Made by a program: the position numbers and the translations under genes | Notes under the pieces: model-generated | The model's input: only the letters and a program-made list of their open reading frames with translations | Database searches by the model: none | What the model was told of the DNA's origin: nothing | Virus genome (UHGV): UHGV-0194471 | Strand: one strand, 5' to 3' | DNA: 37,103 bases | From: a virus | In this document: positions 2,108-13,069 of the stretch, piece after piece | Layout of the letters: each line of letters opens with the position of its first letter | How positions within the stretch are numbered: the first letter of the stretch is position 1

Positions 2108-2313
2108 GCGCCTACCTCCGTTGCCGGGGTTAATTCCATAGTGGGAATAAAGGCGTTATAAGCCTGCTCGCAGTGCGGACAGAGCAAAATTAAATTTACG
2201 CACCACTCCTTATATTCATCAGTCTGCAATAAGCTTGCTTGTTGAAAATCCAGTTCAGTGACTTCTTTTTTGCAGTACACACATTTAATCGTCGCCATCT
2301 CACACCCCCGCAA
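2104..2313 (-). CDS. Small zinc-ribbon protein (CxxC x2), function unknown
   Basis: 69 aa with CVYCKK ... CPHCEQ; overlaps neighbouring genes in an operon-like arrangement. Confidence 0.5.
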   Translation of the reverse strand: MRGCEMATIKCVYCKKEVTELDFQQASLLQTDEYKEWCVNLILLCPHCEQAYNAFIPTMELTPATEVGA

Positions 2314-2917
2314 TATTCAGCACGACAGGCTGGTATTTATCGCTATCACCGACACGCTGATAAACCCGCACGTAACTTGTTGAGTTCACCACCTGCACCG
2401 ACTCGCCAATGGCCTCCATTGCCTTCAGCCAGCGTGGGTCGGTAATTTCATAGCGGCGCAGCGCCAGTACGCGCCCGGTGGAGATGTTGCCCTCTTTATC
2501 TTCTGCGAATGATTTCTCCACGATGACCTTCAGCTCTGGCGTGGCCTGTGCCGTCCACTCATGCAGGCACTCATCAATCAAGTTACGGGCGGCTTGTAAC
2601 CGTTCATCAAAGGCGATGTTTTCGGCAATCTGGCGCTGGATCTTGTAGCGACCATCAAATGAATGCAGGGTGATGTTGCCTTTCTTGCCTCCGGGGCGGG
2701 CATCATATTGTTCAACGGACAAATCAATAAACGCCTGTATATCGCCAAAACAGCGGTTTTTAAACTCAAGTAATTCAGCATTCATTTTCATTGCGTCGGC
2801 GACGATCTCCTTTACCAGCGCATCGCGTGCGCGGTCAATGGGCTTGATCATAGACTCGGGAACCAGACAACCTTTGGCGTCCTGCCAGTAACCTGCGGGG
2901 ATAGTTTTTTCAGTCAT
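2300..2917 (-). CDS. Conserved early-region protein of Mu-like phages (possibly DUF3164-type), function unknown
   Basis: 205-aa ORF directly downstream of the B-like gene; family name is from memory only. Confidence 0.45.
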   Translation of the reverse strand: MTEKTIPAGYWQDAKGCLVPESMIKPIDRARDALVKEIVADAMKMNAELLEFKNRCFGDIQAFIDLSVEQYDARPGGKKGNITLHSFDGRYKIQRQIAENIAFDERLQAARNLIDECLHEWTAQATPELKVIVEKSFAEDKEGNISTGRVLALRRYEITDPRWLKAMEAIGESVQVVNSTSYVRVYQRVGDSDKYQPVVLNIAGV

Positions 2918-2988
2918 AAAATAGTCTCCAGGGTGATTTCAGGGTGTGCGAAGCCTGCCGGGTTGACGGCATTTTTCTGCGACCTGAA

Positions 2989-3117
2989 TTAATTAAATAA
3001 GGCTATGAATATAAAAATCAGTGTAGTTATAGCGCTGGCCCATAATACAAAACGGTCAGCCAGCGATATCTTGCGGTATTGCATCACGTCCTTTCCGGTT
3101 AATTTGTGAAATACCAT
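2989..3117 (-). CDS. Candidate 42-aa hydrophobic peptide (not in the supplied ORF track)
   Basis: ATG at 3117 preceded by AAAGGAG 8 nt upstream; translation MVFHKLTGKDVMQYRKISLADRFVLWASAITTLIFIFIALFN has one predicted transmembrane helix; fills a 200-bp gap. Confidence 0.3.
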   Translation of the reverse strand: MVFHKLTGKDVMQYRKISLADRFVLWASAITTLIFIFIALFN

Positions 3118-3119
3118 TT

Positions 3120-4244
3120 TCACACTCCTTTAATCACATCCGCATTCACCACCGGCACGCCGATATCAGCGGCCAGATTCATTGCGGCGATAACCAGATT
3201 CCCCAGCGCCAGCGGATAAAGCAGACTGACGTCACCGCGTCGGGATGAATTACATAATCGGGCGCGGATAGCATCGGCGGTGCTATCATCCAGCACCTCG
3301 GAAACACCTTTCCCGGTACGCTGAAATTTGAACGCCAGAAACGCTTCCAGATAGTTATCCAGCGGCAGCAGTTCGACGACCTCGCAGCGCTGTACCACTT
3401 CGCGCACCTCCTGATTACGTTCAGAAAGTTTCAGCTTTAGCTCCGGCTGGCCAATCAACACCACCGACAGCAGCTTTTTAAAGCCGTCCTCCAGCTCAAA
3501 GAACCGCTTCAAATGCTTGAGCGTCGGCACCGGTAGCGAGTGCGCCTCTTCAATAACCAGACAATGTGAGAACCCGGCGCGGGCCGACTCTTTCAGCACC
3601 CGGTGCAACTGGCGGTAACGGGCCTCCTGCGAGCGTTTGACGTTCTCCAGCGGTGCGATGGTGTTGATGATGGCCTCGGCAATCGACGCCGCTTTCAGAG
3701 TTTTGCCTTTGGCGTCGTTGTCTTCCATCGCAATGATGTACGGTTCGATGAGGATAACTGGCGCGTTTTCACGGTTGATGCGATCAGCCAGGTCACGGCG
3801 TAGCGTGGTTTTCCCTGCGCCGGATTCGCCAACTACGGCGATAAATCCGCCATGTCGCGCGGTCTGATACAGTGCTTCACGCACGTAGCGGATATCTGGC
3901 GTGGTGAACACGTCGTCCGCACTCTGCATAACCTCATCGGCGAACGGGTCGCGGAACAACCCAAAATGCTTCTTCGCCGCTGGATTTAATACCTGTTTTG
4001 CCAGTAACATATTTTCGTCCTCACTGGATGATGTACCGGTGCAGGCGGTGGCCGCCGTCTGCGCCTCCTTCAGTTCAATACCTTTTTCTGCAAAAAATGT
4101 GCTGATGCGCTCCCGTAGTTCTTCTGTTTTCGGCCACAGGCCGTGATTAACCATCTGCGCGATAACCGCTGCGGAAACTCCGGTAGCCTGTGCTACTGCT
4201 GCCTGAGTGATGCCACGCTGGCGCAACTGTTGTTTAATCTGCAT
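3120..4244 (-). CDS. MuB-like transposition ATPase / target DNA activator
   Basis: N-terminal HTH, Walker A GESGAGKT and Walker B-like HCLVIEEAH; lies immediately downstream of the transposase as in Mu A-B. Confidence 0.8.
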   Translation of the reverse strand: MQIKQQLRQRGITQAAVAQATGVSAAVIAQMVNHGLWPKTEELRERISTFFAEKGIELKEAQTAATACTGTSSSEDENMLLAKQVLNPAAKKHFGLFRDPFADEVMQSADDVFTTPDIRYVREALYQTARHGGFIAVVGESGAGKTTLRRDLADRINRENAPVILIEPYIIAMEDNDAKGKTLKAASIAEAIINTIAPLENVKRSQEARYRQLHRVLKESARAGFSHCLVIEEAHSLPVPTLKHLKRFFELEDGFKKLLSVVLIGQPELKLKLSERNQEVREVVQRCEVVELLPLDNYLEAFLAFKFQRTGKGVSEVLDDSTADAIRARLCNSSRRGDVSLLYPLALGNLVIAAMNLAADIGVPVVNADVIKGV

Positions 4245-4253
4245 AACTCCCCC

Positions 4254-6008
4254 TTAACCGCCGACTACGTTCAGTTGCACTCGGGCGGTAAGCTGCTGCG
4301 CGGCGGCGTCCAGTTCTTCTTCCGCCACGCCTTCTGGCCAGCGTTTCACCAGTTCCTGATACAGTGCGACGTTCCATTCCGGCAACCGTGCTTTCAGCGC
4401 CTTCGCCGCCTCGACGTGAGTCAGACGCCGGGCTTCAACGCGTGGAGCGCGTACCGGGGAATCCTGACCACGACGCGGCAGGAACGCGGGCAGTTCGCTG
4501 TCGGTGATGGGTTTATACGGGTCAAGCCTGCCGCCGAACGGCAGCGCCTTCGCTTTACGCGCCGCAGCCGCGTCCGTCTCGTTATCTGTTCCGGTAACAA
4601 TCTGCTCAATCTGTTTAGCCGCAGTCTGCGCGGGTGTATCGGCGTGGCGCTTGTGATTCTGGCCCAGCACCGCCGCGCCTTCGGCAAAGCCGTATTCGTC
4701 CTTGCGGACTTCCTCCACCAGGTGAAAATACTCGTGGCCATCGTCACCGATGAGCACTACCTGCGCGGCATCGCTGCGCCACGGATTGCGGGTGATCATC
4801 AGTTTTTCACCCACCATCACATCTGGCACGGTGGAGACGTCGTATTCCGTACCCTGAAACGACACGCGCAGCTTCGGCGTTATCTTGCGGCTTTCCGGCG
4901 CGGCAACAGCCAGTTCGCGGCAGACCTCCACCGATGGCGCTTTGATAAGCTGCTGCGCGGTGATGGTCATCCAGACGTTACTACGCGACTTGCCGTGGCG
5001 GGTGTGAATCGCGGTGGCGTTGAAGTGCTGCCGCCACAGGCGCGCTTTGGCGTTCAGTTCCTCCAGGCTGTGAACCGGCTGGAACTTCAGCCCCGGTTCA
5101 AAGCGGCGTTCGATAATGTCGCGCGCCTTTTCCACCTGCCCGGTGGCGCGGGCGTTGTGGGCTTTATGCGCCACCACGTCAATGCCCAGCGAACGACAGA
5201 GGTTCTTCGTCATAGCGGCGGTGTTGGCCGAGCCGGGGTCGAGATACAACATATGCGGCACGCCGTGGAGCACATCCGCGCCGCCGCGCTCCTGCATGGC
5301 ATTGATGAGAACGGAACAGAGATTTTCGCCAGACTCCGCCCCCATCACGTATTCAACGTAGATCCAGCCGCTGGTATGGTCGGTCAGTTCATAGCTCCAT
5401 ACCCGGTCACTGGCGATACGTTGCAGGTTCTTCGGCTTGTTTTTGTAGAACGTCGCGCTGTCCATCACCTGTAACCCGCGCTGGCCGTTGCTGAGGTAGT
5501 ACAGCGTGCAGAGCGAGGCGTCGATTTCCCAGACGTGATTGGGGTGCAGACTGGCAAGCTCCGTCACTGGCGCGGGCTGGCTGAGTTGATCCGGGTGCAG
5601 GCCGTAGCCACGCAGCGCCCGGATGATGGTGCTTTCTGACAATGGCACCCACTCGCCGCTTTCCTCATCCAGCCGCCCGGCGTCAATCTCGCCGTTGGCG
5701 CGTAACATCTCCACGGCATCAATGACGGAATACAGGCGCTTGCCGTTCTTACGGGTGGCTTCCGTCAGCGTAGCGGAAATCATCACCGCCTCATCGCGGG
5801 TCAGCGCGGTTTTTCCGGCGTCGGTGCGGCGCTTGCGTTTATCGGTCACGGCAACCTCCTTTATTCTGCGTAACAGCGTGGCGCGGGACAGGCCAAGTTC
5901 CGCGCAGGCGGCAGTGTAGATTGCGCCGCGTGCGCCATGCCCGGCCTGCCGTGCAGCCTGAGCAACAGCAACTAAGCGTTCGGTCATGACGGCGCTCATG
6001 GTCAGCAT
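4254..6008 (-). CDS. Mu-family DDE transposase
   Basis: 584 aa with an integrase-type catalytic core (candidate DDE residues in WEIDAS, YLDPGS, QVEKARDIIERRFE); position upstream of the B-like ATPase. Confidence 0.8.
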   Translation of the reverse strand: MLTMSAVMTERLVAVAQAARQAGHGARGAIYTAACAELGLSRATLLRRIKEVAVTDKRKRRTDAGKTALTRDEAVMISATLTEATRKNGKRLYSVIDAVEMLRANGEIDAGRLDEESGEWVPLSESTIIRALRGYGLHPDQLSQPAPVTELASLHPNHVWEIDASLCTLYYLSNGQRGLQVMDSATFYKNKPKNLQRIASDRVWSYELTDHTSGWIYVEYVMGAESGENLCSVLINAMQERGGADVLHGVPHMLYLDPGSANTAAMTKNLCRSLGIDVVAHKAHNARATGQVEKARDIIERRFEPGLKFQPVHSLEELNAKARLWRQHFNATAIHTRHGKSRSNVWMTITAQQLIKAPSVEVCRELAVAAPESRKITPKLRVSFQGTEYDVSTVPDVMVGEKLMITRNPWRSDAAQVVLIGDDGHEYFHLVEEVRKDEYGFAEGAAVLGQNHKRHADTPAQTAAKQIEQIVTGTDNETDAAAARKAKALPFGGRLDPYKPITDSELPAFLPRRGQDSPVRAPRVEARRLTHVEAAKALKARLPEWNVALYQELVKRWPEGVAEEELDAAAQQLTARVQLNVVGG

Positions 6009-8108: not shown

Positions 8109-8519
8109 ATGAACATAAAAGAAAGACTCAAAAAAATACTCGCTGACAAAGCGTTATCAATCACTGATGCTGCCGCACAGTGCGATATCCCATATCGTTC
8201 TCTACAAAACTATCTGCGTGGCGAGCGAGAACCAAATGCGGAGGCATTGATCTCAATAGGTACCCATTTGGGTATAAATATTGATTGGCTGCTCACCGGC
8301 AGAGGAGGAATGTATCTGTCTGAACATGCGGATGTTTTGACTGAGCAGCCGGAATACAGCCATGCCGATTTGAAGTTACTGGAATTTTTGAATCAGTTGG
8401 AACCGGATGTACGAAAGGATTTGTTACGCAGTGCTGAAGAAAAACAGCGAGTGGCCGCCCTAGAAAAAAGATTAGAGGAATTGGCTTTAGAACTCGAAAG
8501 CCTAAAACGTTCGGCGTAA
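8109..8519 (+). CDS. Putative prophage repressor, HTH XRE/cI-like
   Basis: N-terminal HTH (…LSITDAAAQCDIPYRSLQNYLRGEREPNAEALISIGTHLGINIDWLLTG) plus C-terminal coiled coil; divergent from the early operon. Confidence 0.65.
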   Translation: MNIKERLKKILADKALSITDAAAQCDIPYRSLQNYLRGEREPNAEALISIGTHLGINIDWLLTGRGGMYLSEHADVLTEQPEYSHADLKLLEFLNQLEPDVRKDLLRSAEEKQRVAALEKRLEELALELESLKRSA

Positions 8520-8557
8520 AGTGTTCTCATTAAGAACAAAACATGAAGGACTATGTT

Positions 8558-9079
8558 ATGAAACACTTTTTCTTACCTTTGGGGGTTTGTGCGCTGTTGT
8601 TGTCGGGATGTGGTGATGACGATGTTACACAGCCATCTGCATCGACAATGTTTACTGTTGAAACCGATAGTCCGGTAGTGAAGCGCGAATTGCCCTTTAT
8701 TCGCCAACAGTGTCCAGGACTGGATAAATACGCAGCAAACTTTGATAAATTTAAGGTCTACGACGACACGATGCGTCCGGTGACAACGGTGGAGTTTCAC
8801 GTCAAGAATGAGAACAGCATACCCGGTAATTACACCGCCTCTGATCATACCTGTTTCCTTTTCATCTCCAACAATACCCACGAAGTGAAGATTTCAAAAT
8901 CCGCCTGCCAGTCTGTTTGCTTCGATAAAGCGGATGTGCCTGGTGGGGATCTGGTTGTGAAACTGGATAAAGAAAGAGTTCCTATGACTGCTGATAAGAA
9001 GTCGCCGCGCGAGGGGTGCCTGATGGTTTACTCGCCAGAGCCAAACGGGGATTACTGGACGTGTCCAAGACAAGATTAA
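8558..9079 (+). CDS. Lipoprotein of unknown function
   Basis: Signal peptide with lipobox MKHFFLPLGVCALLLSGC; AAGGA precedes the ATG at 8558 (alternative start 8543); several Cys in the mature part; AT-rich. Confidence 0.6.
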   Translation: MKHFFLPLGVCALLLSGCGDDDVTQPSASTMFTVETDSPVVKRELPFIRQQCPGLDKYAANFDKFKVYDDTMRPVTTVEFHVKNENSIPGNYTASDHTCFLFISNNTHEVKISKSACQSVCFDKADVPGGDLVVKLDKERVPMTADKKSPREGCLMVYSPEPNGDYWTCPRQD

Positions 9080-9156
9080 ACATGTTGTAAACAAAACAAA
9101 AAAGCGTGCAGACAGCACGCATTTACTATCTAACTCTACTGAAGGTTTCAGATTCT

Positions 9157-10188
9157 ATGCCAGCAAATGAACCTGCAAATGCAATCGTTGTAAATCATGT
9201 GGTTATTCACCTTTTAGATAAAGAGCCGCATGGGGTGACATCCTTACAGCTTAGCCCAGCAGAGAGTGGCGTCACCGCAGCATCACAACGCTTAATAGAT
9301 GATATCTGTGGGAAATATGCAGGGCGAATGGGGAAAGGTTATGGCCATTTTGAAGATGACCCTGACAATTACCCGATGCAAACAATCGTATCAGACTATT
9401 TAGCTCAAGAGCATCCTGATGATTTTTACCGTAGCTCCTGCCGCATGATTCGTCATCTGGAATCTCGGATTCAAACAACACCACTCGCTACTGGTGGCTA
9501 TGTTCTATTCGCCCACATTACGATGAATCAACACGAGCATATTTTAGTTGCCATGTTAAGCCCCACGACGGGAACTGCGGTTAACGATGCCTTTGCTATC
9601 CAGGAAAGTGTCTACCTTGATATCGACAAGCTACGTGTGGCGGGGCGTATTGACATTACGTCCTGGCAATCAGGTGCCGAACGTTATATAAGTTTCCTGA
9701 AAGGGAGCAATGCTGTATCTGGTTACTTTAAGCAGTTCCTGGGCTGTAACGATGTTTTGATCGCCAAGCGTGAAACAGAGAAATTGCGGGATGCGTTGAA
9801 AGAGTTTGCGACTGAGCAAGGGCTTGACCCCGCACGTCGAGAGGCTTTTCTGCAAACGGCCCATGACCATTTGAAGCAACTGAGCAAAGATGGTGAGCCT
9901 GTAGATCTGACAACCTTTGTGAACGCAGTCTGGCCACAAGAACCAGAACTGCTATCGACTAAGCTGGCCAACCAAGAACTGGAACTGTCGGATGGTTTTG
10001 TCCCAGATGGACGCGTACTAAAAGGAATCATTTCCTTTAAAGGAAAGTCCAATCATTGGGAGCTAAAGTTTGATCGTGCTGGTCTTCAAGATGGTTCAAT
10101 TGAGTATAATCGTGATCAGGATGTAATCATTCTAAGGAATATTCCTGATAGCTTCAGAGAAGAGATACTGGATGAGGTTGAGGAGTGA
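9157..10188 (+). CDS. YejK/NdpA-like (NA37 family) nucleoid-associated protein homolog
   Basis: ~343 aa; central segments (GGYVLFAH…ILVAMLS…YLDIDKLRVAGRIDITSWQ…ERYISFLKG…FLGC) resemble the E. coli YejK family as recalled from memory; start placed at ATG 9157 (GAAGG upstream) rather than the track start 9106. Confidence 0.5.
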   Translation: MPANEPANAIVVNHVVIHLLDKEPHGVTSLQLSPAESGVTAASQRLIDDICGKYAGRMGKGYGHFEDDPDNYPMQTIVSDYLAQEHPDDFYRSSCRMIRHLESRIQTTPLATGGYVLFAHITMNQHEHILVAMLSPTTGTAVNDAFAIQESVYLDIDKLRVAGRIDITSWQSGAERYISFLKGSNAVSGYFKQFLGCNDVLIAKRETEKLRDALKEFATEQGLDPARREAFLQTAHDHLKQLSKDGEPVDLTTFVNAVWPQEPELLSTKLANQELELSDGFVPDGRVLKGIISFKGKSNHWELKFDRAGLQDGSIEYNRDQDVIILRNIPDSFREEILDEVEE

Positions 10189-11393
10189 GTATCAGTTTTG
10201 AGCAACTGGTGGGATTGTACAGGCAGATTACTTTCGGTAACGATATGGCCGAAGGTACGCTGGTGCTTACCCCAGAATCCTGCGAGTTGCTCAACGCTTT
10301 GCTTGAGGACACCGATACATATGGGATCTCTCTGGCACAAGGTGAAGTAGTGGCTGGCCAGCAGGTGTCGCTTTTTGTGAACGCCCCAAAGACAAAGCTA
10401 GGTCTGCTATGCCGTAATTTGGCGGCTTTGTTAAAGTCGCCAAAACACCAAAGCGAGGAACCTTCCCGCTACTACCTGATCGACAGCCAATTTTATAGTT
10501 CGGATGCGCCAACATCTGTAATTGAAAACTACCGCACTATCTTAACATTTCTGCGCCTGCTTAAAGAAAAGTCGGCATACTTTGATACCAGTGCATATGA
10601 ATGCGTTTTTTTCCGCGCCGATGTATTTAAATTACCTATACGTTACAGTGCAGAAACCGTAGAAAATCTTGATAAAACGACACTCGATGAACTCATTCAG
10701 CAGTTTTCTGACGACACACACAAAGAGCAGAAACTCTCGCTTTTAATTGAAAGCATCCAGTTAATCGGTCAGGAAACGGAAAACAATAAAGTCTTTGAGT
10801 ATGCACTGAAGAACATTGATAAATTAAAAGTTGAGTTCGATAAGGGTTATCGCCTCTTCACTTCTGGGTTCTCATACGAAAAGGTTCTGGATGAACTTAG
10901 AACCGCCAAAGTTGAAGAAATGGGACGTATCCATAAAGTCTTTTCAGATATCCAAAACCAGATACTGGGTATCCCAGTCGCAACCATTATCGTCGCGACA
11001 CAAATCAAGAAAGCAAGTGGTGATGTCTATCAAACCATTATCAATAGCGCAGTTTTTTTAGGGGCCTTTGTTTTTGCTACGTTGGTTATGTTGACTTTGT
11101 TCAACCAGTTACAGACGTTAACTGCTATCAAAGAAGAACTTCGACATAAAAAGACTCAGGTTGATAAAAAGTATGCATCAATAAAAAATGACATTGATAG
11201 TATCTTTTGCTCTGTACGTAAACGTCTTTGCCGTCAGGTTATCGCGTTCTGGTTTATTATTATGTTCCTTGTTGTCGCTATTATATCGACAGGATTAATT
11301 TACCTATACTGCACATACCCTGAAACATGGAATATCTTGGTTACAAAAGTGATGTCATGGCGGCATCACTTGAGTAATAAGCCCACTCCTTAA
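10185..11393 (+). CDS. Membrane-anchored protein of unknown function (large cytoplasmic N-domain, C-terminal TM helices)
   Basis: GTG start overlaps the upstream stop (GTGA); predicted TM segments AVFLGAFVFATLVMLTLF and VIAFWFIIMFLVVAIISTGLIYLY; markedly AT-rich. Confidence 0.55.
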   Translation: MSISFEQLVGLYRQITFGNDMAEGTLVLTPESCELLNALLEDTDTYGISLAQGEVVAGQQVSLFVNAPKTKLGLLCRNLAALLKSPKHQSEEPSRYYLIDSQFYSSDAPTSVIENYRTILTFLRLLKEKSAYFDTSAYECVFFRADVFKLPIRYSAETVENLDKTTLDELIQQFSDDTHKEQKLSLLIESIQLIGQETENNKVFEYALKNIDKLKVEFDKGYRLFTSGFSYEKVLDELRTAKVEEMGRIHKVFSDIQNQILGIPVATIIVATQIKKASGDVYQTIINSAVFLGAFVFATLVMLTLFNQLQTLTAIKEELRHKKTQVDKKYASIKNDIDSIFCSVRKRLCRQVIAFWFIIMFLVVAIISTGLIYLYCTYPETWNILVTKVMSWRHHLSNKPTP

Positions 11394-11432: not shown

Positions 11433-11454
11433 GCCTCCATCACCCAATGGAGGC
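11433..11454 (+). promoter_or_regulatory. Hairpin enclosing the Shine-Dalgarno of the holin-like gene
   Basis: GCCTCCAT-cacccA-ATGGAGGC, 8-bp stem; the GGAGG at 11449..11453 is in the 3' arm, 5 nt before ATG 11459. Confidence 0.4.
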
Positions 11455-11458
11455 ACTT

Positions 11459-11749
11459 ATGAAAACTTCTCTTTTCCCGCGTTTATCCGGCTGGCTGGTG
11501 GCATCGGTGGTGTTGTTCGCGCTGATTGCGCTGATTTCCCCGCAGCAGCTTCCGGTCGTTGTTTACAAACTGAGCCTGATCTCGCTGGCGGCGGTGCTGG
11601 GCTACTGGCTGGATCGCAGCCTGTTTCCCTATGCGCGGCCAAATTATTTTCAGTCAGCGGAAAATGAACAACGTCTCTTTGCCGCCGCCATGCTGCGCCG
11701 TGCGGTGATTGTCGCGGCGGTGTGTCTGGCCGTGGCGATGGGGCTGTAG
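11459..11749 (+). CDS. Putative holin / small membrane protein (3 predicted TM helices)
   Basis: 96 aa, hydrophobic segments, immediately upstream of the endolysin; GGAGG RBS. Confidence 0.45.
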   Translation: MKTSLFPRLSGWLVASVVLFALIALISPQQLPVVVYKLSLISLAAVLGYWLDRSLFPYARPNYFQSAENEQRLFAAAMLRRAVIVAAVCLAVAMGL

Positions 11750-11751
11750 CC

Positions 11752-12486
11752 ATGACGCTGCATATGTACTGGCCGCAGGTTGTCTGGTCTGTGACGGCGC
11801 TGCTGGGGATGGGAATGGCGCTGGCGCGTCACGGGCAACCGCGCACCGATAAACACAATTTCTGGTACCAGTCGCTGGCGGTACTGATTGCAGGCTGGCT
11901 GCTCTGGTGCGGCGGTTTTTTTAGCCAGGCCAATGCCGCCGAACCGCCCGCTTCCGCCAAACCTTACCGCGCCGAACTGGTGCGTAATGCCCGCGCGGTA
12001 TGGGGGATGGATGCGCCTGTCGCCGATTTCGCCGGGCAGTTCCAGCAGGAATCCGACTGGAATCCCGCCGCCCGTTCACCCGTTGGTGCGCAGGGGATGG
12101 CGCAGTTTATGCCCTCCACTAGCGACTGGATCAGCCAACTGCTTCCCGAACTCCGCGCCCGAGAGCCGTTTAACCCGTCGTGGGCCATCCGGGCGCTGGT
12201 GCAATACGACCAGTGGTTGTGGCAGCGCGTCAGCGCCCGCGATGGTTGCCAGCGAATGGCATTCACCTTAAGCGCCTATAACGGCGGTTTAGGCTGGGTG
12301 AACCGCGATAAAAAGCTGGCGGCGCAGCGCGGGCTGGATGCCGCCGTCTGGTTTGACGCGGTGGCGACGGTCAACGCCGGGCGCAGCGCCGCCAACTGGC
12401 GCGAGAACCGGGGTTATCCGCAACGCATCCTGTACCAGAACGCGCCGCGCTATCTGTCATGGGGAGGGGCTAACTGTGTTCGATAA
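11752..12486 (+). CDS. Endolysin, lytic transglycosylase (SLT domain) with N-terminal membrane/SAR-like segment
   Basis: SLT signature ESDWNPAARSPVGAQGMAQFMPST; N-terminal hydrophobic helices; start taken at ATG 11752 (track start 11722 overlaps the holin gene). Confidence 0.7.
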   Translation: MTLHMYWPQVVWSVTALLGMGMALARHGQPRTDKHNFWYQSLAVLIAGWLLWCGGFFSQANAAEPPASAKPYRAELVRNARAVWGMDAPVADFAGQFQQESDWNPAARSPVGAQGMAQFMPSTSDWISQLLPELRAREPFNPSWAIRALVQYDQWLWQRVSARDGCQRMAFTLSAYNGGLGWVNRDKKLAAQRGLDAAVWFDAVATVNAGRSAANWRENRGYPQRILYQNAPRYLSWGGANCVR

Positions 12487-13069
12487 ACTCAAAACGGCGG
12501 GGTTAGCCGCCACGCTGATACTGCTATTCGTCGTGTTTGGCGGGTATTTCGCGTGGCTGCAAGGCCACAAACACGGCTACGAGAAGGCGCAGACTGAATG
12601 CCTGCGCCTGCAAAAACAGCAGGCCAAGGCCGGGCAACGGGCGTTGCAGGAGGAAATAAACCGCAGCCAGCAGCAGTTGATTCACATCCGGGAAAACGAG
12701 CAGACCTACCTCGCCCGGACAGAGGAACTGACCGCCCGCAACGCCGAACTACAGAGGAAAATTAACGATGTTACGCAGCATTACGTTGACGAAAAAGGCA
12801 AGGCTCATACTGTGGCCTGCGTGTTTACTCGCGGCTTCGTGCAGCAGTACAACGCCTCCCTCGGCGTGTCCGCCCCGGATGTTGCCGCCGCTACCCGCGA
12901 CGCTGGCGCGGCCGCCGCAGCCGTTCAGGGCGCTGACGCCCGGTTACGCGCCTCCGGCGTCAGCCAGCGCGACATCCTCGCCAATCTCGCCGACAACGGC
13001 CAGCGCTGCCAGCAGTTAGCGCTCCAGGTGCGTGGCTTGCAGAACTATATCGCGGAGGTGTCGCGATGA
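12476..13069 (+). CDS. Rz-like i-spanin
   Basis: GTG start preceded by GGGGAGGGG; N-terminal TM (LAATLILLFVVFGGYFAWL) then coiled-coil periplasmic domain; the track start 12338 is an upstream extension overlapping the endolysin. Confidence 0.6.
   Translation: MFDKLKTAGLAATLILLFVVFGGYFAWLQGHKHGYEKAQTECLRLQKQQAKAGQRALQEEINRSQQQLIHIRENEQTYLARTEELTARNAELQRKINDVTQHYVDEKGKAHTVACVFTRGFVQQYNASLGVSAPDVAAATRDAGAAAAAVQGADARLRASGVSQRDILANLADNGQRCQQLALQVRGLQNYIAEVSR
12768..13019 (+). CDS. Rz1-like o-spanin embedded in the +1 frame of Rz
   Basis: Lipoprotein signal with lipobox LLAASC followed by a proline-rich mature peptide; GAGGAAA RBS; fully nested in the i-spanin gene. Confidence 0.55.
   Translation: MLRSITLTKKARLILWPACLLAASCSSTTPPSACPPRMLPPLPATLARPPQPFRALTPGYAPPASASATSSPISPTTASAASS

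Follow-up and report, generated by a model that had tools for sequence, protein, structure and literature searches.

Is the short hydrophobic reading frame that directly follows the B-like gene of this prophage a gene, and what could its product do at the place where phage Mu carries kil? The initial annotation of the window (the whole stretch of viral DNA analysed here, 37,103 nt) had singled out the frame as an unannotated 42-codon ORF, possibly encoding a small membrane toxin or a host-takeover peptide. Its coordinates proved exact, and we can add the strand, which had not been stated: the coding sequence occupies positions 2989..3117 on the minus strand, with an ATG at 3117-3115, 42 sense codons and a TAA at 2991-2989, and the product read from the window is MVFHKLTGKDVMQYRKISLADRFVLWASAITTLIFIFIALFN. 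The good ribosome-binding site that had been described is indeed present, as a Shine-Dalgarno sequence AAAGGAG (3125..3131, minus strand) located 7 nt upstream of the ATG, within the last codons of gene B. The placement directly downstream of B is equally correct, the ATG lying only 2 nt past the TGA of that gene (3122-3120), a layout that suits translational coupling. An in-frame GTG is found upstream of the ATG, at 3123; it is lost in a Lelliottia wanjuensis locus (L013) and in L097, and both of these keep the ATG together with a GGAG/GGGA-type Shine-Dalgarno sequence at the same distance. As the GTG is not conserved in relatives, we take the ATG at 3117 as the start. A consensus scan of positions 2700-3400, which could miss a weak promoter, detected no sigma-70-like promoter on either strand.

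The preceding gene (3120..4244, minus strand) encodes a transposition ATPase of 374 aa that matches Pfam AAA_22 (2e-20) and the PHROG family 'DNA transposition protein' (2.5e-88). It adjoins an rve-type transposase gene, and genes for DUF3164, GemA and Mor come after it, the DUF3164 gene (2300..2917, minus strand, Pfam DUF3164 5e-82) being the next one in the early operon. The nearest described phages are BcepMu, phiE255, B3 and one E. coli phage classified as Bcepmuvirus, which makes the element a transposable prophage of the BcepMu kind rather than a close relative of Mu. The comparison with Mu in the initial annotation needs a correction here: the prophage and its B gene are of the BcepMu type, with an AAA_22/ExeA-like ATPase and an rve transposase, and not of the Mu type. 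The peptide gene is located in the early (transposition) operon of this BcepMu-like E. coli prophage. At the chromosomal side, positions 1-570 of the window are E. coli yahB, 100% identical to that of strain E2348/69, and the prophage end falls between 571 and the mor stop at 716, which fits a Mu-like insertion in or beside yahB. In two other loci (L001 and L002) a related prophage adjoins ybjC/nfsA instead.

Does the frame encode a protein? Its length says little, since 105 ORFs of at least 25 aa overlap the first 8 kb of the window and 42 codons alone are therefore not beyond chance. It is on this commonness of ORFs as long that one could base the opposite reading, a chance ORF whose conservation comes from a nucleic-acid element, for instance an untranslated 3′ region of B or a structured RNA. 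The combination of features, unlike the length, is unusual. Among the 186 ATG-initiated ORFs of 30-60 aa on both strands of the window, an SD-like sequence precedes 6, and so hydrophobic a 17-residue segment is found in 2, which are the peptide ORF and its own nested internal start; the two properties together occur only in this ORF and its nested start. Conservation of the ORF and of its frame in related prophages, the check that had been proposed, was then decisive. We found 11 distinct homologous sequences, 40-98% identical, in which the frame is kept open; they are 42-53 residues long, with the exception of one 100-residue form that carries the module at its C-terminus. In the 10 loci checked, the peptide frame is the only one free of stops throughout, the other five hitting stops in relatives. 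When compared with those of L095, L004 and L013, respectively, the window gene differs at 4/2/15, 4/3/15 and 7/4/21 sites (first/second/third codon positions), with pS of 0.53-0.70, pN of 0.065-0.127 and dN/dS of 0.066-0.077; its pN/pS (0.12-0.18) resembles that of the neighbouring genes A (0.11-0.16) and B (0.05-0.20). Within the LTG(K/D)DVM block, synonymous codons differ between loci, and the constraint is therefore on the protein and not on an internal ribosome-binding site. An internal start at M12, preceded by GGAAAGGA as Shine-Dalgarno sequence, was considered as the reason why this residue is invariant and was rejected, because the codons vary synonymously and the SD-like string is lost in relatives.

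These comparisons indicate a gene that is conserved and under purifying selection, and the 42-codon ORF is almost certainly a real protein-coding gene. The third-position substitution bias with a dN/dS of about 0.07, a frame that stays open in relatives down to 40% identity, an amino-acid motif kept through synonymous changes, and the absence of an Rfam match or of an unusual fold in the region all argue against a chance ORF, a reading that we hold to be extremely improbable and, on this sequence evidence, effectively refuted already. The 100% identity of the ORF and spacer in several E. coli prophages is neutral in this respect, such a comparison being uninformative on coding.

Prophages with an identical ORF provide two further observations. 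In L001, L002 and L096 the peptide ORF and the spacer are 100% identical to the window, and B is only ~93.5% identical in DNA; the synonymous differences end about 20 nt before the 3′ end of B (in the window, the ~3117-3140 region), and their cessation there suggests a recent recombination boundary at the junction between B and the peptide gene. In L002 (E. coli A35, 3321-4241), B is annotated as a frameshifted pseudogene, and the downstream peptide ORF is intact and identical.

That annotation pipelines miss this small gene, as had been supposed, is borne out by PGAP: the identical ORF is found in two RefSeq E. coli genomes (the prophage type being present in 2 of 5,426 complete genomes), and in both of them the gap between B and the DUF3164 gene is empty. 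The description of the ORF as unannotated therefore applies to these two genomes but not to all relatives, as NCBI lists the Lelliottia and Limnobaculum homologues under the name 'hypothetical protein'.

The 71-nt spacer that runs from the peptide stop to the next gene (2918-2988) contains a 5-bp hairpin, TGCCG-N6-CGGCA (2956..2971, not assigned to a strand), which may not belong to the peptide gene. This spacer is nearly invariant in L095, L004 and L201, even with a different downstream gene. The hairpin, outside the peptide ORF, is terminator-like only on the plus strand, antisense to the operon, where 1 such site was found against 0.7 expected, and the spacer folds no better than its shuffled versions (z = -1.0). 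No match was obtained in Rfam. A terminator or an RNA element was thus rejected for this hairpin, which is no better than chance and shows no covariation.

How widespread is the peptide? Two homologues, P0001 and P0002, are 98% and 83% identical, and tblastn on loci fetched via the B protein added L095 (88%), L013 of Lelliottia wanjuensis (74%) and L097 (~50%), the peptide of the latter being identical to protein P0004 of Limnobaculum xujianqingii. Profile searches then added P0005-P0007, a 53-aa form (P0008) and a 100-aa form (P0009). In P0009, a 57-residue N-terminal domain is fused to the module, which makes up the last 43 residues, so that this form consists of the 57-residue domain, …LHQLTGDDVMHHRKVSLADRLAVW and the TM segment. 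It is located at 4001-4303 of L206 and at ~3780-4070 of L227 (reverse strand), in both cases after a B that is 44% identical. We considered that its N-terminal domain might be a truncated Kil; hhalign, pairing 'HRPCIRIPVDN' with 'SKPVIRIARNG', gave a probability of only 0.2%, and the idea was dropped. The IMG genome 2890520432 carries the 100-aa form (L227) and a 45-aa form (L174) in two different prophages.

The family has few members and is seldom met: we found it in a few prophages of Enterobacterales, among them those of E. coli, Lelliottia and Limnobaculum, as well as in 5-6 contigs of IMG/VR and 1 metagenome contig. Scanning metagenomes with a back-translated KLTGKDVM pattern returned 21 matches, a single one of them real (L181, identical to the window); a looser motif scan of viral contigs gave one new member, L227, its other matches being to an unrelated LTGDDVM-containing protein. 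A full HMMER scan of 1.84 billion representative proteins returned 6 matches, 5 of them family members and the sixth (P0010) a spurious repeat protein. Two further proteins, P0011 and P0012, have in common a '(A/S)DRxVLWASAI + TM' stretch and are encoded in small-gene arrays of phage or phage-like contigs devoid of visible Mu-type genes; with E-values of 0.58 and 6.9 and no PHROG link, they were not counted as members.

The context of the gene changes among these loci. In L013 (4080-4208), L199 (4001-4516) and L200, the peptide gene comes after B, and mor immediately after the peptide gene, a minimal early operon without the DUF3164, pyrophosphohydrolase and GemA genes in which the peptide gene is nevertheless retained. 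Four other loci, L201-L203 and L205, have an additional gene of 72 aa inserted after B and before the peptide gene, and there the peptide has a different N-terminus (MPASHF.../MPVSHY...) and its own Shine-Dalgarno sequence, GGAGG or GGAG. In L204 the stop of the peptide gene is overlapped by the next gene.

The peptide can be divided into two parts. Codons 1-22 (3052-3117, minus strand) encode a basic N-terminal segment, predicted to be cytoplasmic, the invariant core of which is LTGKDVM (codons 6-12, 3082..3102, minus strand). In the alignment of the 11 distinct sequences, L6, T7, G8, D10, V11, M12, K16 and D21 are invariant, and K5, A20, W26, S28, I30 and I34 nearly so. Codons 23-41 (2995..3051, minus strand) encode a predicted TM helix, FVLWASAITTLIFIFIALF, beyond which N42 is the only residue. 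The single TM helix announced by the initial annotation is supported both by hydropathy, residues 23-41 forming the single hydrophobic stretch with a best 17-residue Kyte-Doolittle mean of 2.44, and by AlphaFold2, whose model has one helix, from residue 8 to residue 41, with a pLDDT of 88-93 across the hydrophobic residues and of 54-68 at the N-terminus. Residues 23-41 are hydrophobic in every member, with a divergent sequence, from ...WASAITTLIFIFIALF to ...WLASVGLIILAILGMIGG in P0004; small residues recur at 28, 31 and 39 (S28, T/G31, A/G39), on one helical face, and the helix has no charged or strongly polar residue. All charges are found before it (K5, K9, D10, R15, K16, D21 and R22, net +3) and none after, from which, by the positive-inside rule, we infer a cytoplasmic N-terminus. 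The peptide is thus very probably anchored in the membrane in an N-in topology, and would be a tail-anchored inner-membrane protein with essentially nothing in the periplasm.

Searches of described families with this protein were largely negative. Pfam gave no family for the peptide, NCBIfam none for the 5 members searched, and PADLOC none for 5 members at E up to 5. When two members were searched by tblastn in 50,697 phage records, nothing matched even at an E threshold of 10, low-complexity filtering probably masking the helix; megablast of the region against phage records gave no match either. A PDB sequence search gave only a non-significant TM-segment similarity to the 50-residue subunit IV of aa3 cytochrome oxidase (E 0.5); Foldseek, run with the single-helix model against viral structures, found nothing, as expected, and a literature search for the LTG(K/D)DVM-type motif returned nothing. 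The only library family matching several members is phrog_11981, with consistent though weak matches for six of them (E 0.0019, 0.0004, 0.027, 0.0043, 0.062 and 0.00093) that cover the N-terminal motif and part of the helix.

What normally occupies the place of this gene? In Mu, kil is the first gene after B, and as PMC3961180 puts it in a passage citing Waggoner et al. 1989, its expression turns E. coli cells spherical. In every locus fetched by means of the B protein, we located the end of B and determined which ORF comes next. In most enterobacterial relatives, this ORF encodes an 89-aa soluble protein that starts 2 nt past the B stop, the same spacing as for the peptide gene; KP12 and PhiKM carry this protein, and BcepMu gp07 and B3 ORF10 are in the same place. 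The slot proteins align with Mu Kil through common RPxI and GC(R/Q)(I/V)xW motifs, and a profile of slot proteins built without Mu Kil matches Mu Kil over 65 columns (hhalign E 5e-5, probability 67%). Moreover, the KP12 protein matches a PHROG family annotated Kil (E 0.006), and BcepMu gp07 links to the KP12 family. For some of the slot proteins, the label 'Kil-like' comes from one alignment and a moderate hhalign probability (67%). Since Mu kil is the first gene after B and the slot proteins are related to Mu Kil, the slot after B is a Kil slot, and the statement that the ORF occupies the position of kil in Mu is borne out.

The occupants of this slot seem to replace each other. Among 187 loci with B, counted with redundant ones (the same or near-identical contigs), a Kil-like gene was found near B in 120, the peptide in 29 and both in none, and no Kil-like gene was detected anywhere in the 37-kb window. 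Because the loci are redundant and largely follow the B phylogeny, this exclusion may reflect only one or two replacement events. The peptide carriers belong essentially to one B clade (78-100% identity), to which a distant lineage is added (L206/L227, B 44% identical), and loci whose B is 51-76% identical to that of the window are without the peptide. The slot can also hold unrelated genes: in Haemophilus prophages the gene there encodes a 67-aa lipoprotein, and in L056 and L086 the genes encode other small TM proteins. The lipoprotein of L062-L074 (Haemophilus and other Pasteurellaceae, ~4177-4383) measures 63-68 aa (MRKTTLILTAFLLAGC...) and is neither Kil-like nor the peptide. A common slot would not, however, prove a common function with Kil. 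When compared with the Kil-like profile (A5) by hhalign, the peptide family (A4) gave an E-value of 0.35 and a probability of 0.2%, and it matched no PHROG Kil family.

We propose the following explanation, to which we give, as a whole, a probability of roughly 0.4. Ribosomes that have just finished translating B would translate the peptide through the Shine-Dalgarno sequence in the last codons of B. The product would be tail-anchored in the inner membrane, N-in/C-out, with about 22 basic residues in the cytoplasm and residues 23-41 spanning the membrane. On induction of the prophage, it would act early in lytic growth as a host-takeover factor, its invariant LTG(K/D)DVM...K...D residues and the conserved small-residue face of its helix binding some host protein on the cytoplasmic side of the inner membrane. 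In doing so it would perform the job that Kil does in the relatives, namely arresting host morphogenesis or division. A Kil-like host-takeover role of this kind is a tentative proposal that we hold to be somewhat doubtful when taken alone. The binding mechanism is favoured because the invariant residues are predicted to be cytoplasmic, the helix behaving as an uncharged anchor of replaceable sequence, with small residues conserved on one side. It also has a precedent in the Staphylococcus phage PhiNM1, whose Gp11, one of the small membrane proteins from early phage genes that interfere with cell-wall synthesis or division of the host, blocks division by binding MurG and DivIC rather than by making a pore (PMC11237401).

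A more specific version can be formulated, in which an undescribed family of tail-anchored phage effectors displaced Kil in one lineage of transposable phages, LTG(K/D)DVM docking onto a morphogenetic or division protein and so arresting elongation or division. We regard it as speculative and rather unlikely. If it were true, LTG(K/D)DVM would be a short transferable membrane-proximal inhibitor module, as the module is also found fused to the 57-residue domain of P0009.

The toxin suggested by the initial annotation would act differently, the helix of a type I toxin- or holin-like peptide oligomerising to depolarise or permeabilise the inner membrane, and thereby killing the cell or priming lysis. 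The peptide has the small size and the hydrophobicity for this, and S28, T/G31 and A/G39 on one helix face could support helix-helix packing. However, the strongest constraint is on the N-terminus, predicted to be cytoplasmic, and not on the helix, which lacks charged or strongly polar residues; such a pattern, with an invariant motif and a variable, uncharged TM segment, argues against a simple membrane-damaging toxin. Neither a promoter of its own (in 2700-3400) nor evidence for an antisense RNA was found, and no toxin or holin family was matched in Pfam or NCBIfam. Furthermore, the prophage has a complete lysis cassette elsewhere (11447-13069, plus strand, opposite to the peptide gene), made of a Holin_2-3 holin (11447-11749, plus strand, 4e-33), an SLT-domain endolysin with a hydrophobic N-terminus (11722-12486, plus strand, SLT 1e-14) and an Rz-like ORF (12338-13069, plus strand) that embeds an Rz1-like lipoprotein ORF (12768-13019). 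A simple membrane toxin seems to be the less likely version of the host-takeover reading, and improbable in itself. Could the peptide serve B instead? ExeB is a small bitopic partner of the AAA_22 ATPase ExeA, and since B belongs to the AAA_22/ExeA-type family, the peptide might be an accessory transposition factor that holds the B ATPase, or else the transpososome, at the inner membrane or regulates it there, in an ExeB-ExeA-like manner. Its coupling arrangement with B, its inheritance with one B clade (78-100% identical) and its persistence in early operons reduced to A, B, the peptide gene and mor (L013, L199) are all consistent with such a partnership, but the 72-aa gene that separates it from B in L201-L203 and L205, the presence of the module beside a B only 44% identical (L206) and its absence beside B proteins 51-76% identical are not. 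Moreover, the slot normally holds Kil-like proteins, the Mu prototype of which acts on cell shape, and we consider a B partner improbable as well.

Small inner-membrane proteins of phages are also known to exclude superinfecting phages, as do T4 Imm, P22 SieA and HK97 gp15. With this precedent, and with a small lipoprotein in the same slot of the Haemophilus relatives, one may think of a factor that excludes superinfecting phages or modifies the envelope, and that in lytic growth would shut out incoming DNA or block an inner-membrane component linked to a receptor. The early operon being repressed and no promoter being detected, no product is expected in the lysogen, which speaks against exclusion, as does the predicted location of the conserved part on the cytoplasmic side; this reading is a very improbable one. 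An accessory-looking cassette (8543-11393, plus strand) between the repressor (8109-8519) and the holin could be a defence or exclusion module. It encodes a 178-aa lipoprotein, a 360-aa homologue of the NA37 nucleoid-associated protein (PF04245, 6e-74) and a 402-aa protein with C-terminal hydrophobic stretches and no Pfam or PADLOC match.

Here, a small-protein gene is verified for a type of prophage in which PGAP misses it in the two E. coli RefSeq genomes. The slot after B in BcepMu-like phages is exchangeable, being occupied mostly by a Kil-like protein and here by a 42-residue membrane peptide; the most interesting point is this clean replacement of Kil at the same coupled position, together with a short invariant motif. 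If the peptide does the job of Kil, a host-takeover gene of a phage would here have been replaced by a non-homologous one, and the peptide would offer a very short handle for finding a host target at the inner membrane. Its 42 codons, its clear motif to mutate and the natural variants at hand make it easy to approach by experiment.

No described family matches the peptide, which on its sequence features joins a known class, the small single-pass membrane proteins of phage early regions. It has the architecture of tail-anchored small inner-membrane proteins, with a TM helix at the very C-terminus, a predicted cytoplasmic N-terminus and no signal peptide, a likeness that implies no homology. The library family that scores, weakly, against it, phrog_11981, is a 49-position profile without annotated function. 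We do not place it among the holins, since its gene lies outside the lysis cassette and its product matches no Pfam family. The type I toxins Hok, TisB, Ldr and Ibs are alike in small size and in having one hydrophobic helix. These toxins, however, consist mainly of the helix or begin with it, and each is expressed from a dedicated promoter and paired with an antisense RNA, whereas in the peptide the helix is C-terminal, behind a conserved polar N-terminus, and the gene would be coupled to B in an operon. The resemblance to PhiNM1 Gp11 is of a general kind only, the host and the phage type being different and no homology being detected. The closest parallel of position is Kil itself: Mu Kil (gp5, 74 aa), BcepMu gp07, B3 ORF10 and the KP12-PhiKM protein occupy the same slot as the peptide, first after B, and in most enterobacterial relatives the Kil-like gene starts, like the peptide gene, 2 nt past the B stop. 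The Kil proteins are soluble, of 74-113 residues, and bear the RPxI...GC(R/Q)(I/V)xW signature, whereas the peptide that takes their place has 42 residues and a TM helix.
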